NCBI GenBank assembly: GCA_023246225.1
Contig: JAHFIV010000002.1
Location: 1 to 62,015 of the forward strand
Reading direction: 5' to 3'
Length of the DNA stretch: 62,015 nucleotides
Origin: a bacterium
GTDB lineage: Bacteria > Patescibacteriota > Patescibacteriia > SG8-24
Below the pieces are notes generated by a model that was given only the letters and a program-made list of their open reading frames with translations, was not told the DNA's origin and ran no database searches. Made by a program: the position numbers and the translations under genes. The stretch's first letter is position 1; each line of letters starts with the position of its first letter. This document shows, piece by piece, positions 4,887-60,400 of this stretch.

Positions 4887-4955
4887 AGAGGTAAAGGTCT
4901 AAAGGTTTAAAGATACTGTTTATCTTTAAACCTTTTAACCTCTACACCTTTTAAA
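4887..4955 (+). repeat. heptamer-stutter hairpin spacer (AAAGGT/AGAGGT arm pairing with an AACCTTT/ACCTCT arm)
   Basis: AGAGGTAAAGGTCTAAAGGTTTAAAGATA-ctgt-TATCTTTAAACCTTTTAACCTCT fills the atpE-atpF spacer. Same motif set as 45189-45253 and 56051-56153. Confidence 0.6.
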
Positions 4956-4961
4956 CTTCGT

Positions 4962-5489
4962 ATGATTGAAGAAACAAAACAAGCCGCCGGCATTGCGGGT
5001 GCACTCGGATCGCTCGGTGTCGATGGAAAACTTTTCCTCGCGCAACTCCTAAACTTTGGTGTGGTGCTCTTTGTGATGTGGAAGTGGGTGTACACGCCAC
5101 TTCTCAAAGTGATGGACGAACGTTCGAAAAAAATCGAGCAAGGATTAAAAGATGCAACCGATGCCGCAGCGCTTCGTCGCAGTGCAGACGAAGAACGTGA
5201 CAGGATCGTTCTCGCTGCGCGTGCAGACGCGAAACAGATCGTTGAAGAAGCGGCAGTAAACGCTGAAACAGAGCGCGTTGCAGCAACCGCTCGCACAAAA
5301 ACTGAAGTAGAACGGATCGTCACGCAAGGAAAAGAACGACTGGCAGCAGAAAAACAAACGCTCATGGCATCGGTGCGTGCAGAAGCAGCGGATCTCGTGA
5401 CTGCGGTCGCAGAAAAAGTGCTGCGTGAAAAACTTGACGCCGCAGCCGACAAAAAATTGATCAAAGATGCGCTGAAAGATATCGCGTAG
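4962..5489 (+). CDS. atpF: F0F1 ATP synthase subunit b
   Basis: N-terminal TM helix then a long charged helix; operon position. Confidence 0.85.
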   Translation: MIEETKQAAGIAGALGSLGVDGKLFLAQLLNFGVVLFVMWKWVYTPLLKVMDERSKKIEQGLKDATDAAALRRSADEERDRIVLAARADAKQIVEEAAVNAETERVAATARTKTEVERIVTQGKERLAAEKQTLMASVRAEAADLVTAVAEKVLREKLDAAADKKLIKDALKDIA

Positions 5490-10176: not shown

Positions 10177-10340
10177 GTCATCCTGAACTTGATTCAGGAC
10201 CCAGAAACGTAAAAAAAGCCGAACGGAAATCGTTTGGCCTTTTTAATTTTTCTGGATTCCGGGTCACGGCCCGGAATGACAAAAAAAAGGGGGGTCGGAA
10301 TGACAGAAAGGAGGGGTCGGAATGACAGAAAAAATGACAG
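10177..10340. repeat. REPIN/BIME-like palindromic cassette A (hairpin modules around a terminator core, then GGAATGAC half-site array)
   Basis: GTCATCCTGAA..TTCAGGAC, CCAGAAACG, core AAAAAAAGCCGAACGgaaatCGTTTGGCCTTTTT, TTCTGGATTCCGGGTCACGGCCCGGAATGAC, then GGAATGAC at 10297 and 10319. Confidence 0.85.
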
Positions 10341-10344
10341 AAAA

Positions 10345-10373
10345 TTGACAAAAATAGTATAAAAAGATATTCT
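10345..10373 (+). promoter_or_regulatory. promoter of the 10431 CDS
   Basis: TTGACA-N17-TATTCT. The -35 continues the ATGACA half-site series of cassette A. Confidence 0.45.
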
Positions 10374-11273: not shown

Positions 11274-11576
11274 GTCATTCCGGGCCGTGGCACGTCGGTC
11301 GCGACCGACGTGCCGTGACCCGGAATCCAGAATCGTAAAGCCAAACGTAATCACGTTTGGCTTTTTTATTTTTTCTGAATTCCGGCCCCTCTTCTGTCAT
11401 TCCAGCCTCTCTATCTTGTCATCCCAGCCTCCTCTTTTTGTCATTCCGGGCCGTGACCCGGAATCCAGAACCGTCAAGCCAAACGATTTTCGTTCGGTCT
11501 TTTTTTTACGTTCTGGATTCCGCCCCGGATCCCGGTCCGGGGTCGGAATGACAATATAAAGAGGGCCCGGAATGAC
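11274..11576. repeat. REPIN/BIME-like cassette B (two tandem units; the first carries the nested 26-bp palindrome)
   Basis: Unit 1 is 11274-11400 with core GCCAAACGtaatcaCGTTTGGC. Half-sites GTCATTCC/GTCATCCC sit at 11396, 11418 and 11440 (22-nt steps). Unit 2 is 11440-11552 with core GCCAAACGattttCGTTCGGTC. Confidence 0.9.
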
Positions 11577-14103: not shown

Positions 14104-14207
14104 GTCATTCCGGGCCGTGACCCGGAATCCAGAATCGTAAAGCCAAACGTATATCACGTTTGGTCTTTTTTTTACGTTCTGGGTCCCGGATCGCGGTCCG
14201 GGATGAC
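14104..14207. repeat. REPIN/BIME-like cassette C
   Basis: GTCATTCCGGGCCGTGACCCGGAATCCAGAATCGTAAAGCCAAACGtatatcaCGTTTGGTCTTTTTTTTACGTTCTGGGTCCCGGATCGCGGTCCGGGATGAC. Confidence 0.9.
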
Positions 14208-14218
14208 AACAGTATGCG

Positions 14219-17694: not shown

Positions 17695-17829
17695 GTCATT
17701 CCGGGCTCCTCTTTTTGTCATTCCGGGCTTGACCCGGAATCCAGAAACGTAAAAAAATCCGAACGAAAATCGTTCGGTCTTTTTGTTGTGTGGATTCCGC
17801 CCCGGATCCCGGTCCGGGGTCGGAATGAC
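17695..17829. repeat. REPIN/BIME-like cassette D
   Basis: Half-site at 17695, full module at 17717, core TCCGAACGaaaatCGTTCGGTC, right arm GGATTCCGCCCCGGATCCCGGTCCGGGGTCGGAATGAC. Confidence 0.9.
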
Positions 17830-17837
17830 AATAAAAC

Positions 17838-17866
17838 TTGCCAGAGGTTGCTGAGACGTCTATACT
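17838..17866 (+). promoter_or_regulatory. mreB operon promoter
   Basis: TTGCCA-N17-TATACT. Confidence 0.5.
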
Positions 17867-24797: not shown

Positions 24798-24982
24798 GTC
24801 ATTCCGACCCCCCCCACATTGTCATTCCGGGCCGTGGCACGTCGGTCGCGACCGACGTGCCGTGACCCGGAATCCAGAACGTAAAAAAAGCCGAACGGAA
24901 ATCGTTCGGTCTTTTTGTTGTGTGGATTCCGCCCCGGATCCCGGTCCGGGGTCGGAATGACAAAGAGAGAGGCTGGGATGAC
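24798..24982. repeat. REPIN/BIME-like cassette E (carries the nested 26-bp palindrome)
   Basis: Half-site at 24798, module at 24821 with the GGCACGTCGGTCGCGACCGACGTGCC insert, core GCCGAACGgaaatCGTTCGGTC, right arm ending GGAATGAC, extra GGGATGAC. Confidence 0.9.
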
Positions 24983-33431: not shown

Positions 33432-33466
33432 CACGACCCCCGTTTTCTACGGGGGTCGTTTTATTT
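33432..33466 (+). terminator. ftsH intrinsic terminator
   Basis: ACGACCCCC-loop-GGGGGTCGT followed by TTTATTTT. Confidence 0.75.
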
Positions 33467-33467
33467 T

Positions 33468-33660
33468 CTCATCCTGACCCCGGATCAAGTCCGGGGGATT
33501 CAGGACCCAGTCATTCTTTGTCATTCCGGGCCGTGACCCGGAATCTAGAACGTAAAAAAGAGCCAAACGGAAATCACGTTTGGCTCTTAAGGTTCTGGAT
33601 TCCGGCTCGGAGGCCGGAATGACAATGAATGAGTGGGTTCCGGGTCACGGCCCGGAATGA
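33468..33660. repeat. REPIN/BIME-like cassette F
   Basis: TCATCCTGACCCCGGATCAAGTCCGGGGGATTCAGGAC, GTCATTCCGGGCCGTGACCCGGAATCTAGAA, core GCCAAACGgaaatcaCGTTTGGCTC, and two right-arm modules ending GGAATGAC. Confidence 0.9.
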
Positions 33661-33965: not shown

Positions 33966-33994
33966 TTGACCAGAAGTAACAGTTTTGCTAGGGT
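33966..33994 (+). promoter_or_regulatory. promoter of the first M41-only gene
   Basis: TTGACC-N17-TAGGGT. Confidence 0.45.
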
Positions 33995-34029
33995 ATCAAG
34001 TTGGTTCTTTTCATGTCTGGAGGTGCATC

Positions 34030-34752
34030 ATGCAATCGATCAAGATAAAAAAGCATTCGTGGTGGACCAGTGTAACGTTGATCGTCATCAGCTTATGGGA
34101 GAAGACACGGCGTTTGATCCCCTTTTTGCGGGAACCGCATGTCCGCGTCTACCTCCCACGACAGTACGATAACGATGGACGAACTCGCACCGCAGTGCAC
34201 GAGGCAGGACATGCCGTGGTTGCGTGGAGTGCAAAAAGTGTACGACATATCACGCGAATCATAATCACTGCCGACAGAGAAGAAGAGGACCTCTTCCTGA
34301 ACGCGGGTCGCACCAAGTACATTAAAAAAGGAACGCCGTGGGGTGAAACGCCACACCGTCTTTGGGAAGATGTGGCGATCGGTCTCGCGGGACTCGCTGC
34401 AGAGTCCAACGTCTACGATTTCTTCCAACCGTCGGGCGCGGAGGAAGATCTCGGTGATGCCTTGTTGGCCGCGAAGCTGATCGTACTCAAAGAACGCAGA
34501 AAGGGGAAAATATTTTCTCCACCGTGGAAAAAGGAAACGCCCATGCGTAACGCCCTCGACCTCGCGTCGGTCTGCTACCACCCAAACGAACTCACTCCAC
34601 GTCTCTCAGAAATTCTGAACTTGTCCTACTATCGTGCGTGCGACATCGTACGTGCGGAGCGGGAACGACTGGATGCGCTCGCTGTGGCAGTGCACAAAAA
34701 AGGGGCACTCCAGAAAAAAGAGATCAAAACAATCCTTGGTAGACGTCGATAA
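34030..34752 (+). CDS. FtsH-type peptidase M41 domain protein lacking the AAA ATPase module (paralog 1)
   Basis: GGAGG SD then the ATG at 34030; one N-terminal TM helix; TAVHEAGHAVVAW, LAGLAAE, GAEEDLGDA, C-terminal helices parallel to the FtsH tail; no Walker motifs. Confidence 0.7.
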   Translation: MQSIKIKKHSWWTSVTLIVISLWEKTRRLIPFLREPHVRVYLPRQYDNDGRTRTAVHEAGHAVVAWSAKSVRHITRIIITADREEEDLFLNAGRTKYIKKGTPWGETPHRLWEDVAIGLAGLAAESNVYDFFQPSGAEEDLGDALLAAKLIVLKERRKGKIFSPPWKKETPMRNALDLASVCYHPNELTPRLSEILNLSYYRACDIVRAERERLDALAVAVHKKGALQKKEIKTILGRRR

Positions 34753-34884: not shown

Positions 34885-35532
34885 ATGATACCTGTCACCG
34901 TAGCGATCATCCCGTGGAGTGCGGTGAAAAAATTCGCTCGTGAATTGCTGCGAAAGGGAAGTCACCTACTCCCCTTCTCCGGGCGCTCACGAATGGCGAC
35001 ACATGAAGCAGGACACGCGATCGTCGCATGGCACTCTTCGTGCGTCGTTAACATCACAAAGATCACCATCGTCCCCGACCGAACATCTGAGTATGGCGCC
35101 GCCACTTCCTATGAAGTGTTCAATCGCTTAAAACCAGAAGATCTTTGGGAACGTATCGCAATTTCTCTCGCAGGCCTCGCTGCAGAAGCGCTTGTGCGCG
35201 GTGATCTCAGCATCGGTGGGTCCTCGAGTGATCTCGATCGAGCAGGCATCATCGCGGAAAACATTGCAGATCTTCCGTACGATCTCTCGCGATGTCCGTG
35301 GACGGATGTAGAATATGCACCGCAGCGTTTCGACCTCATACCACTCGCGTACAAAAGTCTGACTTCAACGAACACAAAAATTCTGAACATCTGTCTTCAG
35401 CGTGCAGTCATGATTCTCGAAGCGCATCGTGAGCAACTGAACGCACTTACCGCTGCGATCAAGTCACAAGATACCCTCGATTCCGAAGCGGTCAGTGCGG
35501 TTCTCGGCGAGCGTCCCACGTTCACGTTGTAA
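34885..35532 (+). CDS. FtsH-type peptidase M41 domain protein lacking the AAA ATPase module (paralog 2)
   Basis: [30 protein letters not shown]; no Walker motifs. Confidence 0.7.
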   Translation: MIPVTVAIIPWSAVKKFARELLRKGSHLLPFSGRSRMATHEAGHAIVAWHSSCVVNITKITIVPDRTSEYGAATSYEVFNRLKPEDLWERIAISLAGLAAEALVRGDLSIGGSSSDLDRAGIIAENIADLPYDLSRCPWTDVEYAPQRFDLIPLAYKSLTSTNTKILNICLQRAVMILEAHREQLNALTAAIKSQDTLDSEAVSAVLGERPTFTL

Positions 35533-35563: not shown

Positions 35564-35750
35564 GTCATTCCGGGCCACCTACTTTGTCATTCCGGGCCGT
35601 GACCCGGAATCTAGTCATTTTTTGTCATTCCGGCCTCCGAGCCGGAATCCAGAAAAATACAAAGACCAAACGAGATTCGTTTGGTCTTTTTTTACGTTCT
35701 GGATTCCGGGTCACGGCCCGGAATGACAAAAGAAGAGCCGTGGAGATGAC
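35564..35750. repeat. REPIN/BIME-like cassette G
   Basis: GTCATTCC at 35564, 35586 and 35624; core GACCAAACGagattCGTTTGGTC; right arm GGATTCCGGGTCACGGCCCGGAATGAC; extra GAGATGAC. Confidence 0.9.
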
Positions 35751-42721: not shown

Positions 42722-42755
42722 AAAAACCACCGGCCATAAGCTGGTGGTTTTTTGT
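42722..42755 (+). terminator. clpB intrinsic terminator
   Basis: AAAAACCACC-loop-GGTGGTTTTTT. Confidence 0.7.
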
Positions 42756-42765
42756 TTTATTTCTC

Positions 42766-43176
42766 TCAATTGTCATTCCGACCACGGATCGAACCTGGAG
42801 GATCCAGACCAGCCACACATTGTTTGTCATTCCGACCCCTCTTCATTTTGTCATTCCGGCCTCCGAGCCGGAATCTAGAAAAGACCAAACGTATATCACG
42901 TTTGGTCTTTTCTGGGTTCCGGGTCACGGCCCGGAATGACATACTTAGAAGGCCGGAATGACAGTACTTATACTTTCTCCAAAAAATCAGCAATGGAACC
43001 GAGGAAACGCCTATAAATTGAGCGAATTTTTCTGACTGCCATAGTGTTTTGCCCATGGGAGTGGTATGGTGAACATACCACTCCACGTGGAATGAACGGT
43101 CCGTTAAAGCGGACCTTACTGCGAGAATACTGCACCACTCTCCCAAGAGACGCAGTATTTTCGTTTTCAGGAGCAT
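42766..43176 (-). CDS. doubtful ORF downstream of lexA whose 3-prime half reads through cassette H
   Basis: GAGGAG lies 6 nt before the ATG at 43176. About 70 unique codons, then repeat-encoded SFRAVTRNPE-type sequence. Confidence 0.25.
   Translation of the reverse strand: MLLKTKILRLLGEWCSILAVRSALTDRSFHVEWYVHHTTPMGKTLWQSEKFAQFIGVSSVPLLIFWRKYKYCHSGLLSMSFRAVTRNPEKTKRDIRLVFSRFRLGGRNDKMKRGRNDKQCVAGLDPPGSIRGRNDN
42772..42962. repeat. REPIN/BIME-like cassette H
   Basis: GTCATTCC at 42772, 42826 and 42850; core GACCAAACGtatatcaCGTTTGGTC; right arm GGGTTCCGGGTCACGGCCCGGAATGAC plus GGCCGGAATGAC. Confidence 0.9.
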
Positions 43177-46739: not shown

Positions 46740-46885
46740 GTTGTTCCGGACTCCCTTTTTTGTCATTCCGGCCTCCGAGCCGGAATCCAGAACCGTAAAG
46801 CCAAACGTATATCACGTTTGGCTTTTTTATTTTTTCTGGATTCCGGATCCTGGTCCGGAATGACAAAGAGTGGGTTGGAATAACA
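46740..46885. repeat. REPIN/BIME-like cassette I
   Basis: GTCATTCCGGCCTCCGAGCCGGAATCCAGAA, core GCCAAACGtatatcaCGTTTGGC, TTCTGGATTCCGGATCCTGGTCCGGAATGAC, extra GGAATAAC. Confidence 0.9.
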
Positions 46886-54467: not shown

Positions 54468-54755
54468 GTCATCCTGAACTTGATTCAGGACCCAGACATG
54501 TGTTCTCGTTCCGACCCTGTCCTCTGTCATTCCGGCCTTGAGCCGGAATCCAGAATCGTAAAGCCAAACGTAATCACGTTTGTTTTTTTACGTTCTGGAT
54601 TCCGGGTCACGGCCCGGAATGACAAAAAGAGGTGGCTGGAATGACAGAGAGAGGATGGAATCCAGAAAAATAAAAAAGACCGAACGGAAATCGTTCGGTC
54701 TTTTTTACGTTCTGAGTCCTGAATCCCCCGGACTAAGGTCCAGGGGTCAGGATGG
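54468..54755. repeat. REPIN/BIME-like cassette J (two units, both module types)
   Basis: GTCATCCTGAACTTGATTCAGGAC; GTCATTCCGGCCTTGAGCCGGAATCCAGAA with core GCCAAACGtaatcaCGTTTG; a second core GACCGAACGgaaatCGTTCGGTC flanked by GGAATCCAGAA and CTGAGTCCTGAATCCCCCGGACTAAGGTCCAGGGGTCAGGATG. Confidence 0.9.
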
Positions 54756-56050: not shown

Positions 56051-56153
56051 AGGGAGGTGTAAAGGTTTAGAGGTTAGAGGTTAGAGGTTAGAGGTTTAGA
56101 GGTTCGGACCTTTTAACCTTTACACCTTTTTACCTCTACACCTTTTAACCTCA
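56051..56153 (-). repeat. heptamer-stutter hairpin filling the whole rpoA-rplQ spacer
   Basis: Plus strand GGTGTAAAGGTTTAGAGGTTAGAGGTTAGAGGTTAGAGGTTTAGAGGTTCGG opposite ACCTTTTAACCTTTACACCTTTTTACCTCTACACCTTTTAACCTC. Confidence 0.65.
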
Positions 56154-56990
56154 TTATGATTTCTTCTCTTTTTTTGCCTTCTTCACCTTCTTCGGTTCCT
56201 CGTCTGCAGCATCGACGATCGCCGCAGGTTCCGCATCTTCGTCTTGCACCGGCGGAGCATCGTTCGCTGCTGCACCGCTCTCTTCAGAAGCCGTGGGCAT
56301 CACACCGCGATGCATTACCAGCGAGAAGTGGTCGAGAAGAATCTTCACTGATTGATCGACGGCTGCCTCTGGGGTGATCGTACCGTCGGTTTCAATGGTC
56401 ATCACGAGCTTGTCGAAGTTTGTGATCTGTCCGACACGGACGTTGTCGATGCGATACCCGACGTCGCGAACCGGTGAGAACACCGAATCGATCGCGATCA
56501 TACCAAGTTCATTTTTCTCCTTTGACCGCTCTTCGACCGGCACATAGCCGCGGCCTTTGCCGACGAAAATTTCCATCTCAAGCTCTGCCTTTTTATCGGT
56601 GAGCGTGGCGATGTGCAGGTCCGGATTGGCGATTTCTACATCGCTGGTCGTTTCGATATCTGCCGCAGTGACCGCTTTGTCACCTTTCACGGAGAGATGC
56701 AAACGCACCGTTTCATCACTGAACACCCGCATGCGAAGCGACTTCAAGTTGAGCAACACTTCGAGCACATCTTCCTTCACGCCAGGGATCGCCGCAAACT
56801 CATGCGTCACTCCTTTGATCTTCACCGCGGTGACCGCCGCACCAGGAAGCGACGACAACATCACGCGACGAAGCGCGTTGCCGAGCGTGGTCCCGTACCC
56901 GTGAAAACACGGTTCGATTGTGAGGGTCGCCTTGCTGGCATCCTCACCGGGAGTAAGTTCGATTTTTGACGGAAGTAAGATGTCTTCCAT
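56154..56990 (-). CDS. rpoA: DNA-directed RNA polymerase subunit alpha, N-terminal domain only (no alpha-CTD)
   Basis: NTD is conserved (LGNALRRVMLSSLPGAAV...). After DHFSLV the protein ends in a low-complexity acidic then KKVKKAKKEKKS tail of about 45 aa. 278 aa in total. Confidence 0.92.
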   Translation of the reverse strand: MEDILLPSKIELTPGEDASKATLTIEPCFHGYGTTLGNALRRVMLSSLPGAAVTAVKIKGVTHEFAAIPGVKEDVLEVLLNLKSLRMRVFSDETVRLHLSVKGDKAVTAADIETTSDVEIANPDLHIATLTDKKAELEMEIFVGKGRGYVPVEERSKEKNELGMIAIDSVFSPVRDVGYRIDNVRVGQITNFDKLVMTIETDGTITPEAAVDQSVKILLDHFSLVMHRGVMPTASEESGAAANDAPPVQDEDAEPAAIVDAADEEPKKVKKAKKEKKS

Positions 56991-60152: not shown

Positions 60153-60195
60153 TCGTCCCGCCTCGCACTATCTCGTGCGGGGTTTTTTAATTATG

Positions 60196-60400
60196 GTCTC
60201 ATTCCGGCCCCTCTCTTTGTCATTCCGACCCCGGACCGGGATCCGGGGCGGAATCCAGAAAAAAAAATACCAAACAATTTCCGTTTGGTCTTTTTTTACG
60301 TTCTGGATTCCGGGTCACGGCACGTCGGTCGCGACCGACGTGCCACGGCCCGGAATGACAGAAGTGGGGCCGGCATGACAAAGGAGTGGCCACGAATGAC
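60196..60400. repeat. REPIN/BIME-like cassette K (carries the nested 26-bp palindrome in the right arm)
   Basis: GTCTCATTCC, GTCATTCCGACCCCGGACCGGGATCCGGGGCGGAATCCAGAA, core TACCAAACAatttcCGTTTGGTC, right arm with the GGCACGTCGGTCGCGACCGACGTGCC insert, then GGCATGAC and CGAATGAC. Confidence 0.9.

Follow-up and report, generated by a model that had tools for sequence, protein, structure and literature searches.

We analyzed a 62,015-nucleotide (nt) stretch of the Patescibacteriota genome assembly GCA_023246225.1 (contig JAHFIV010000002.1, positions 1 to 62,015; hereafter the window), which carries, among others, the atp, mreB, ftsH, clpB, fmt, rpsI and rpoA genes and, between its genes, a series of cassettes built from one palindromic repeat unit with a terminator-like core. 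An original prediction, made from the sequence, had described these cassettes as elements resembling BIMEs (bacterial interspersed mosaic elements) and REPINs (doublets of repetitive extragenic palindromic, REP, sequences) that carry the operon terminators.

Palindromic cassettes at gene ends

Reading of the sequence together with regular-expression searches placed 11 intergenic cassettes with 13 core hairpins in the window (Table 1), amounting to 2101 bp or 3.4% of its length. The cores were matched by the expression CCRAACR-N4-8-CGTTYGK, each with an A-rich run before and a T-rich run after it. A covariance model (R1, from alignment A1), built from the 13 window units and 11 metagenome units, returned exactly these 13 cores when run on both strands of the window (E values of 3e-12 to 4e-6), the next match having an E value of at least 0.85. 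The loci are tied together by direct-repeat families, and an automatic, rough split of the cassettes yielded about 29 complete hairpin modules and 15–20 half-sites. According to a crude map of open reading frames (ORFs), every cassette is intergenic and abuts the 3′ end of at least one gene; cassettes were scarcer in divergent (5′-5′) intergenic regions, which is the expected direction, with regions too few for more than a rough P of about 0.1. With regard to the 11 loci and their modules, the 12–13 composite copies, the loop variants, the alternative module (GTCATCCTGA..TCAGGAC) of cassettes A, F and J and the location of all copies at gene 3′ ends, these results bear out what had been predicted.

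Neither Rfam at gathering thresholds nor a tRNA scan gave a match within the window. Approximately 55 ORFs of the window, compared with Pfam or NCBIfam, and all its six-frame ORFs, searched with hidden Markov models (HMMs) and regular expressions, included no transposase, integrase, HUH or GIY-YIG protein, in agreement with the earlier statement that no transposase, integrase or gene resembling a REP-associated tyrosine transposase (RAYT) lies there. Literature searches with the sequence strings and the accession numbers found nothing relevant.

Each unit consists, in order, of an outer hairpin (TGTCATTCCGG-loop-CCGGAATCYAGAA), an A-run, the stem CCRAACG/CGTTYGG, a T-run and an inverted hairpin, the full layout being GTCATTCCGG-loop-CCGGAATCCAGAA / A-run / (G/A)CCRAACG-loop-CGTTYGG(C/T) / T-run / TTCTGGATTCCGG-loop-CCGGAATGAC. 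The three modules proposed for the unit were thus recovered, and they make up more than a row, since folding as single-stranded DNA (ssDNA) joined them into one long imperfect palindrome of about 100 nt, of which cassette C (14104–14207) is an example. Minimum free energies of the units as ssDNA ranged from −35 to −41 kcal/mol (z-scores of −7.6 to −12.5), and those of the core alone as RNA from −13.6 to −23.4 kcal/mol. The pairs of the core stem were 89.5% intact, with 22 double-sided changes compared to 10.2 ± 3.4 in shuffles. In clean units, the flanks prolong the palindrome (e.g., CCTCT|GTCAT...ATGAC|AGAGG). Several hairpin subtypes share the common frame GTCAT...A(T/C)CYAG, with the stems TCCGG(N), CCTGA(A/C), CCCGG and a nested form, CCGACCCCGG.

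The loops of three hairpins enclose a perfect palindrome of 22 nt, CACGTCGGTCGCGACCGACGTG (11291–11312, 24838–24859 and 60321–60342). In one strain, the position of cassette E holds a plain hairpin without it, and a cousin of this palindrome is nested likewise in an unrelated contig (L249, around position 2440).

Table 1. Cassettes, conventional terminators and promoter-like sites of the window (SRM, Ssn-related motif; energies in kcal/mol).
Feature	Positions	Strand	Modules	Context
Cassette A	10177..10340	no strand	type-ii hairpin (GTCATCCTGA..TCAGGAC) 10177-10204; core 10218-10238; right side, inverted SRM hairpin 10252-10280, then 2-3 half-sites to 10340	begins 7 nt past the atpC stop codon; other terminator absent
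Cassette B, two units	11274..11576	no strand	cores 11340-11361, 11478-11498; hairpins 11274-11330 (with nested palindrome 11291-11312), 11440-11468, 11513-11552; half-sites 11396, 11418, 11576	
Cassette C, clean single unit	14104..14207	no strand	core 14142-14164; right hairpin 14179-14207	
Cassette D	17695..17829	no strand	core 17758-17778	after the stop codon of a 129-aa gene, before the conserved mreB promoter
Cassette E	24798..24982	no strand	core 24890-24910	between convergent genes
ftsH conventional intrinsic terminator	33435..33467	+	folded gap −29.8	upstream of cassette F
Cassette F	33468..33660	no strand	core 33562-33584, weak + strand T-run	directly follows the native ftsH terminator
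Cassette G	35564..35750	no strand	core 35665-35685, strong A- and T-runs	convergent genes on either side
clpB conventional intrinsic terminator	42722..42762	+	folded gap −23.4	
Cassette H	42772..42962	no strand	core 42884-42906, short T-runs	follows the native clpB terminator
Cassette I	46740..46885	no strand	core 46800-46822; T-run strong on + only	between convergent fmt and glycosyltransferase gene
Cassette J, two units	54468..54755	no strand	cores 54563-54584, 54679-54699	downstream of rpsI (− strand); the strong U-run in that direction is that of unit J2
Conventional intrinsic terminator before cassette K	60160..60188	+	folded gap −23.5	
Cassette K	60196..60400	no strand	core 60269-60289; right hairpin holds nested palindrome 60321-60342	follows a native terminator
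Promoter-like site TTGACA-17-TATTCT	10345..10373	+		immediately 3′ of cassette A; kept in the cassette-less sister species
mreB promoter-like site TTGCCA-17-TATACT	17838..17866	+		immediately 3′ of cassette D; kept in the cassette-less sister species

Outer hairpins, ssn genes and the range of the core

The Neisseria Transformation Sequence (NTS; CGTCATTCCCGCGMAVGCGGGAATCYRG) encloses dRS3, is the ssDNA target of the 94-aa GIY-YIG nuclease SsnA, and has been generalized to Ssn-related motifs (SRMs), which adjoin ssn genes in many phyla (PMC11893778, Nat Commun 2025). Three bases 5′ of the palindrome are required for cutting by SsnA and the C right after it for binding, and the authors themselves raised the analogy with insertion sequences and with REP-BIME elements (PMC11893778). 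The window hairpin and the NTS share the oriented frame GTCATTCC...GGAATCYAG, including the SsnA-critical three bases at the 5′ side and the C at the 3′ side. About 29 window hairpins read GTCAT-stem-loop-stem-A(T/C)CYAG, and a C follows the palindrome in all variants; the flanks expected of an SRM, that is, GTCAT/GTCWY on the 5′ side and a C directly after the palindrome in a hairpin of 20–50 nt, are therefore present. The strong over-representation against shuffled sequence that is characteristic of SRM-type repeats was observed as well: the 10-mer GTCATTCCGG, with at most one mismatch, had 40 matches in the window (approximately three of them outside the 11 loci) compared to 5.1 ± 2.6 in shuffles, and 0 of 100 shuffles reached 40. 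As judged by its sequence frame, the outer hairpin is an NTS/dRS3-type SRM.

The published SRM pattern (HGTCWYN(0-2)YYVSBRHN(0-5)WNVSBRGN(0-2)RNCYNB) gave one match in the window, at the right hairpin of cassette C (14179–14208, − strand); the main CCGG-stem variant misses it at one R and one G position. Because only one window copy is matched, the CCGG-stem subtype is largely invisible to the published search. A single pattern, GTCATTCC-N7-37-GGAATCYAGAA, recovered the Neisseria form (GTCATTCCCGCGCAGGCGGGAATCCAGAA, 52 matches) and the CCGG form on viral contigs. The exact CCGG hairpin was found in at least 119 stretches of species-representative genomes from many phyla, its range including Dehalococcoidia, Patescibacteria, Bacteroidota, Fibrobacter, Omnitrophica, Elusimicrobia, Nitrospinota and Desulfobacterota as well as Alpha-, Beta- and Gammaproteobacteria. 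The first stem pair inside CCGG covaries (G-C, C-G, A-T and T-A), being paired in 148 of 157 copies, and an inverted partner lies at most 150 nt away in 57 of the 115 testable hairpin copies. Solo intergenic copies of exact window hairpin variants (e.g., GTCATTCCGGCCTCCGAGCCGGAATCCAGAA) occur on viral-class contigs (L076, L087, L107 and others).

A scan of all fetched loci with HMMs and regular expressions revealed three single-domain GIY-YIG genes encoding 96–98 aa, all PF01541, in a Rhodospirillales metagenome-assembled genome (MAG; L236), a Gammaproteobacteria MAG (L180) and a locus with Neisseria-type hairpins (L040). Hairpins flank each of these ssn genes on both sides, in forward orientation upstream of it and in reverse orientation downstream. 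The window cassettes present the same hairpin bracket, with a 40–60-nt spacer in place of the ssn gene; because pairs of such hairpins bracket ssn genes elsewhere, the cassettes look like ssn-less derivatives of the type of REPINs or Neisseria intergenic mosaic elements (NIMEs). A search with a profile of the three ssn proteins was saturated (7998 of 8000 candidates matched), and the best 120 matches held none labelled Patescibacteria. An 84-aa single-domain GIY-YIG protein (PF01541) is encoded in one cassette-bearing metagenome locus (L257, 7703–7954, − strand), about 900 nt from the cassette. It was rejected as the cognate enzyme, since it appears YhbQ/UPF0213-like by eye, its gene has an apparent tRNA gene on either side, as read from the sequence, and it has no hairpin flanks.

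With regard to the core, none of 126 hairpins in genome loci was followed by it, and R1 detected no core in approximately 0.8 Mb of loci from other phyla or in syntenic relatives. The composite pattern was not found on viral contigs, and whole-unit BLAST against plasmid and phage collections gave no match. The composite was present in 18 stretches (approximately 12 distinct loci) of the SXGR/SXGS/SXGT metagenome assemblies, so that, as had been anticipated, the element is not confined to the window. These contigs share with the window the cassette alone (85–89% identity over 83–111 nt), the detectable homologues among their other proteins being 25–36% identical and not orthologous. Among the sequences searched, the terminator-like core is thus lineage-restricted, occurring in the window genome and approximately 12 metagenome loci. 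Tandem units that are each about 20 nt long and resemble half-sites (the 5′ arm of the hairpin only) lie just upstream of a full hairpin in Chloroflexota, Dehalococcoidia and Nitrospinota loci (L167, L199, L242 and L172). Half-site arrays are a general feature of the hairpin family; nested insertion into a resident hairpin was considered as their source and rejected, the arrays being asymmetric between the two sides. Consequently, of the two features that had been called distinctive, the built-in core retains this character and the half-site arrays, also seen in Chloroflexota and Nitrospinota loci, do not.

Predicted terminator role and turnover of the cassettes

The cores have the form of an intrinsic terminator, in which a U-tract comes after a GC-containing stem-loop at the 3′ end of a gene, and were among the top terminator-like sites in the region covered by a terminator scan. 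T-runs on the + strand amounted to 9–12 of 14 for 10 of the 13 cores. On the side facing the upstream gene (tandem or + strand), the 5–45 nt from stop codon to cassette held no other fold at eight of the 11 loci (A, B, C, D, E, G, I and J), at which the T-run facing that gene reached 9–12 of 14. At these eight loci, the cassettes are the only terminator candidates and may, as claimed, carry the operon terminators. Cassettes F, H and K lie after strong ordinary terminators and therefore do not carry the terminators of those operons; the cores of two of them have degraded T-runs (6 and 7 of 14).

Relatives and strains were compared at the cassette sites. The MreB of the window is encoded identically in the MAG GCA_023246215.1 and in several ENA and Logan metagenome assemblies, the closest named AtpC homologues are those of "Patescibacteria group", "Candidatus Uhrbacteria" and "Candidatus Parcubacteria", and the order of greA and an aminoacyl-tRNA synthetase gene is common to the window and a Patescibacteria MAG locus (L126); homologue names and synteny thus point to an uncultured Patescibacterium as the host. 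A sister species (L277, L278 and L279; identities to the window of 92% for AtpD, 88% for UvrD, 96% for MreB and 82% for AtpC) has the gene order of the window from the atp operon to pbp2. No hairpin and no core were found in 10–20 kb of this species, where the window has cassettes A–D; a more distant relative (L281, AtpC 73%) likewise has no cassette at sites A–D. At the site of cassette D, the sister species has 84 nt with the conserved mreB promoter only, and at that of cassette B, where the two neighbouring genes are the same as in the window, it has a conventional terminator (−21.6 kcal/mol). Conventional terminators also follow the carbonic-anhydrase-like genes in L281 and in another relative, L280. 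The uvrD gene is preceded by a conventional terminator in L277 and L281 and by cassette C in the window, the upstream gene being different there.

Strains whose flanking proteins are identical differed by whole modules: cassette D had gained or lost half-site units of 22 nt and a type-ii hairpin, the left hairpin of cassette E was swapped (L268) and the right hairpin of cassette I was tandemly duplicated (L274); cassette A was invariant. Many short contigs end within cassettes, as expected because the cassettes are repeats, which explains assembly breaks at gene ends in these organisms. The site comparisons indicate that cassettes have been gained or lost recently. This polymorphism among relatives and strains had been named as a check, and the empty sister sites, together with the 85–89% identity of core and arms in unrelated contigs, uphold the proposal that the copies represent one element and not independent terminators.

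The loci at which the cassette is the sole candidate, together with the sister comparison, fit a course in which cassettes arrive at the ends of genes and take over termination where no other terminator remains. The cores would terminate transcription in both directions; the bidirectional-terminator form that had been assigned to them gains comparative support from the conventional sister terminator at the site of cassette B.

Other palindromic repeat families (GGGATCAGGATTTGGGATTCAGGGG... and others) were observed in the related Patescibacterium L280 (GCA_023246175.1), at 890–977, 2228–2300 and other sites, being placed after atpC and after the next gene. As they differ from that of the window, different relatives carry different gene-end palindromes.

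Further features of the window were recorded. Its first 10 kb are without a cassette, and positions 1–2000 have 62% G+C (approximately 52% elsewhere) and long overlapping ORFs without a Pfam match. Right behind the full-length ftsH, in the interval from cassette F to cassette G, are two ORFs (33985–34752 and 34885–35532) whose matches are limited to the C-terminal part of FtsH. The rpoA ORF (56154–56990, − strand) encodes 278 aa, with matches to the N-terminal and insert domains and no match to the alpha C-terminal domain. A second repeat family, of CT-rich units (CCTTTTAACCTYTACACCTTTT), occurs at 4916–4967 (between atpE and atpF) and at 56094–56161 (just beyond rpoA); a palindromic version of this family lies between mreB and mreC in the sister species (L277, 18436–18505).

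Interpretation and comparison with known systems

We consider it probable that the cassettes are non-autonomous palindromic repeats made of inverted SRM hairpin pairs, linked to Ssn, with a core that doubles as a bidirectional terminator. The succession of forward hairpin, spacer and reverse hairpin, with the spacer replacing the ssn gene, makes the unit a REPIN- or NIME-like doublet. The hairpins would form on ssDNA and be recognized there by a putative Ssn-type ssDNA nuclease, whose gene would lie outside the window, in the same genome or in the community. Through Ssn chemistry, itself putative, and recombination among its numerous direct repeats, the family may spread and be remodelled. The spacer would, in this lineage, have become the conserved hairpin of A-run, GC stem and T-run, so that the unit would also act as a bidirectional intrinsic terminator. 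At most sites, it would be the sole terminator of the upstream gene or operon, and at cassette B it would stand where the sister species has a conventional terminator.

Several observations weigh against this interpretation. The degenerate published SRM pattern fits only one of the approximately 29 window hairpins, and no gene of the Ssn family (cd10448) or other GIY-YIG gene was found in the 62-kb window or in approximately 170 kb of cassette-bearing metagenome loci (L245–L262), with the exception of that in L257. Neither a target-site duplication nor a transposition intermediate is visible, and the strain differences could stem from slippage or recombination alone. As for termination, which is predicted from the sequence, cassettes F, H and K sit behind ordinary terminators (stop-to-cassette gaps of −29.8, −23.4 and −23.5 kcal/mol), and the U-tract of cassette I is poor on its − strand side.

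Slippage and homologous recombination are central to one alternative, in which the SRM-type hairpins are inert in this host and kept for RNA-level roles (termination, 3′-end protection), with no dedicated nuclease. The lack of ssn in the window and in L245–L262, the location of the observed strain differences between direct repeats and the fact that 19% of genomes with more than 200 SRMs are without ssn (PMC11893778) agree with it; we nevertheless regard it as unlikely, as it explains neither the gain at new sites compared to the sister species nor the 85–89% whole-unit identity across otherwise unrelated contigs. The hairpins could instead be mainly attachment or target sites of a site-specific recombinase or phage, and the cassettes their scars. 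dRS3 has been reported as the target of a Neisseria filamentous-phage recombinase (PMC11893778), and the general hairpin pattern is common on viral contigs; however, none of the 11 cassettes adjoins an integrase or prophage, viral contigs lack the composite and the conserved core is left unexplained, which makes this explanation very unlikely. Ordinary intrinsic terminators that resemble each other through host-specific constraints, with no repeat-family dynamics, would account for the terminator shape of the cores and their place at gene ends. It seems extremely improbable that they are all there is, given that about 100 nt, including the non-terminator arms, are conserved between loci and unrelated contigs, that the arms are a hairpin common to many phyla, that orthologous sister-species sites lack cassettes and that three copies sit behind a working-looking terminator.

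Two further alternatives invoke a transposase. REP/REPIN elements mobilized by a RAYT, an HUH Y1 transposase, share with the cassettes the inverted doublets of small palindromes folding into one long hairpin, the location at intergenic gene ends and the lack of target duplication. REPs carry a GTAG 5′ tetranucleotide, though, whereas the conserved 5′ motif of the cassettes is GTCAT; no RAYT or IS200/IS605-like ORF was found in the window, and the identical hairpin elsewhere brackets GIY-YIG ssn genes and not RAYTs, so that mobilization by a RAYT is very improbable. A conventional miniature inverted-repeat transposable element (MITE), derived from an insertion sequence with a DDE transposase and having terminal inverted repeats and target-site duplications, would likewise be short, palindromic, non-coding and multi-copy, with presence/absence polymorphism. 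We hold this to be highly improbable: the clean units, both in the window and in L245–L262, have no flanking direct duplication; their ends are structured hairpins with strand-specific flanks; there is no transposase in the window; and the composite is unmatched among plasmids and phages.

A more far-reaching version of the SRM-based interpretation, which we put forward tentatively and regard as possible but doubtful, is that of a self-spreading terminator. In this streamlined Patescibacterium, an Ssn-linked doublet would have taken up a bidirectional terminator core and displaced ancestral intrinsic terminators; as a selfish repeat, it would now supply most operon ends and be kept for this function. 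If so, each operon boundary would carry a strand-specific ssDNA cleavage site, and cuts in incoming or replicating single strands would yield operon-sized recombination units, in a lineage thought to depend on DNA uptake.

The first description of the Ssn/SRM system dates from 2025. The window offers a hairpin subtype that is mostly missed by the published pattern and yet occurs in many phyla and adjoins ssn genes. REPIN-like SRM doublets support the view that hairpin-ssn-hairpin units resemble insertion sequences and shed non-autonomous derivatives. The core that stands where a relative has an ordinary terminator offers a case in which to ask whether termination in a reduced genome can be taken over by a mobile repeat.

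Compared to the NTS and the SRMs, the window hairpins are alike in forming hairpins of 28–31 nt with oriented flanks and the SsnA-critical positions, in their high copy number and intergenic copies, and in that ssn genes of other genomes are bracketed by the identical subtype. They differ in the stem (CCGG(N) as opposed to CCCGCG in the NTS), in the arrangement of the copies as doublets around a conserved terminator-like core, in the window itself being without an ssn gene and in the host, a Patescibacterium, a group unnamed in the text of PMC11893778. The resemblance to REPINs and BIMEs that had been proposed proved sound for the doublet architecture, with inverted palindromic repeats forming one long hairpin, non-autonomous units at gene ends, no target duplication and repeats that bracket a single-copy nuclease gene (RAYT there, ssn for the window hairpin in other genomes). 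As the closest family, it gives way to the NTS/dRS3-type SRMs, since REPINs have an HUH Y1 RAYT and GTAG, in contrast to the GIY-YIG Ssn and GTCAT of the hairpin described here, mobilization by Ssn being putative; a RAYT gene flanked by repeats with the GTAG motif was not found in the window.

NIMEs are repeat units flanked by dRS3 inverted repeats, and share with the cassettes the mosaic intergenic arrays, the inverted dRS3-type hairpins around short units and the modular strain variation. However, a NIME has diverse RS units of 50–150 bp, whereas the window cassette has one conserved bidirectional-terminator hairpin. The NIME dRS3 consensus, ATTCCC-N8-GGGAAT, is not matched by the window, which reads ATTCCGG-N5-9-CCGGAAT, and the architecture is analogous only. 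Correia repeat-enclosed elements have TA duplications and inverted repeats of their own. In Neisseria, terminators are also formed by inverted pairs of the DNA uptake sequence (DUS; cited within PMC11893778). Both resemble the cassettes in being palindromic repeats at gene ends and in forming a hairpin by which transcripts can be terminated or processed; there is no sequence similarity, and DUS pairs are uptake signals and not SRM hairpins. The repeat is therefore a local variant within a known repeat class and not a new kind of system. Three things appear to be new, namely the CCGG-stem subtype with its breadth across phyla, the dense doublets in a Patescibacterium and the conserved bidirectional-terminator core.

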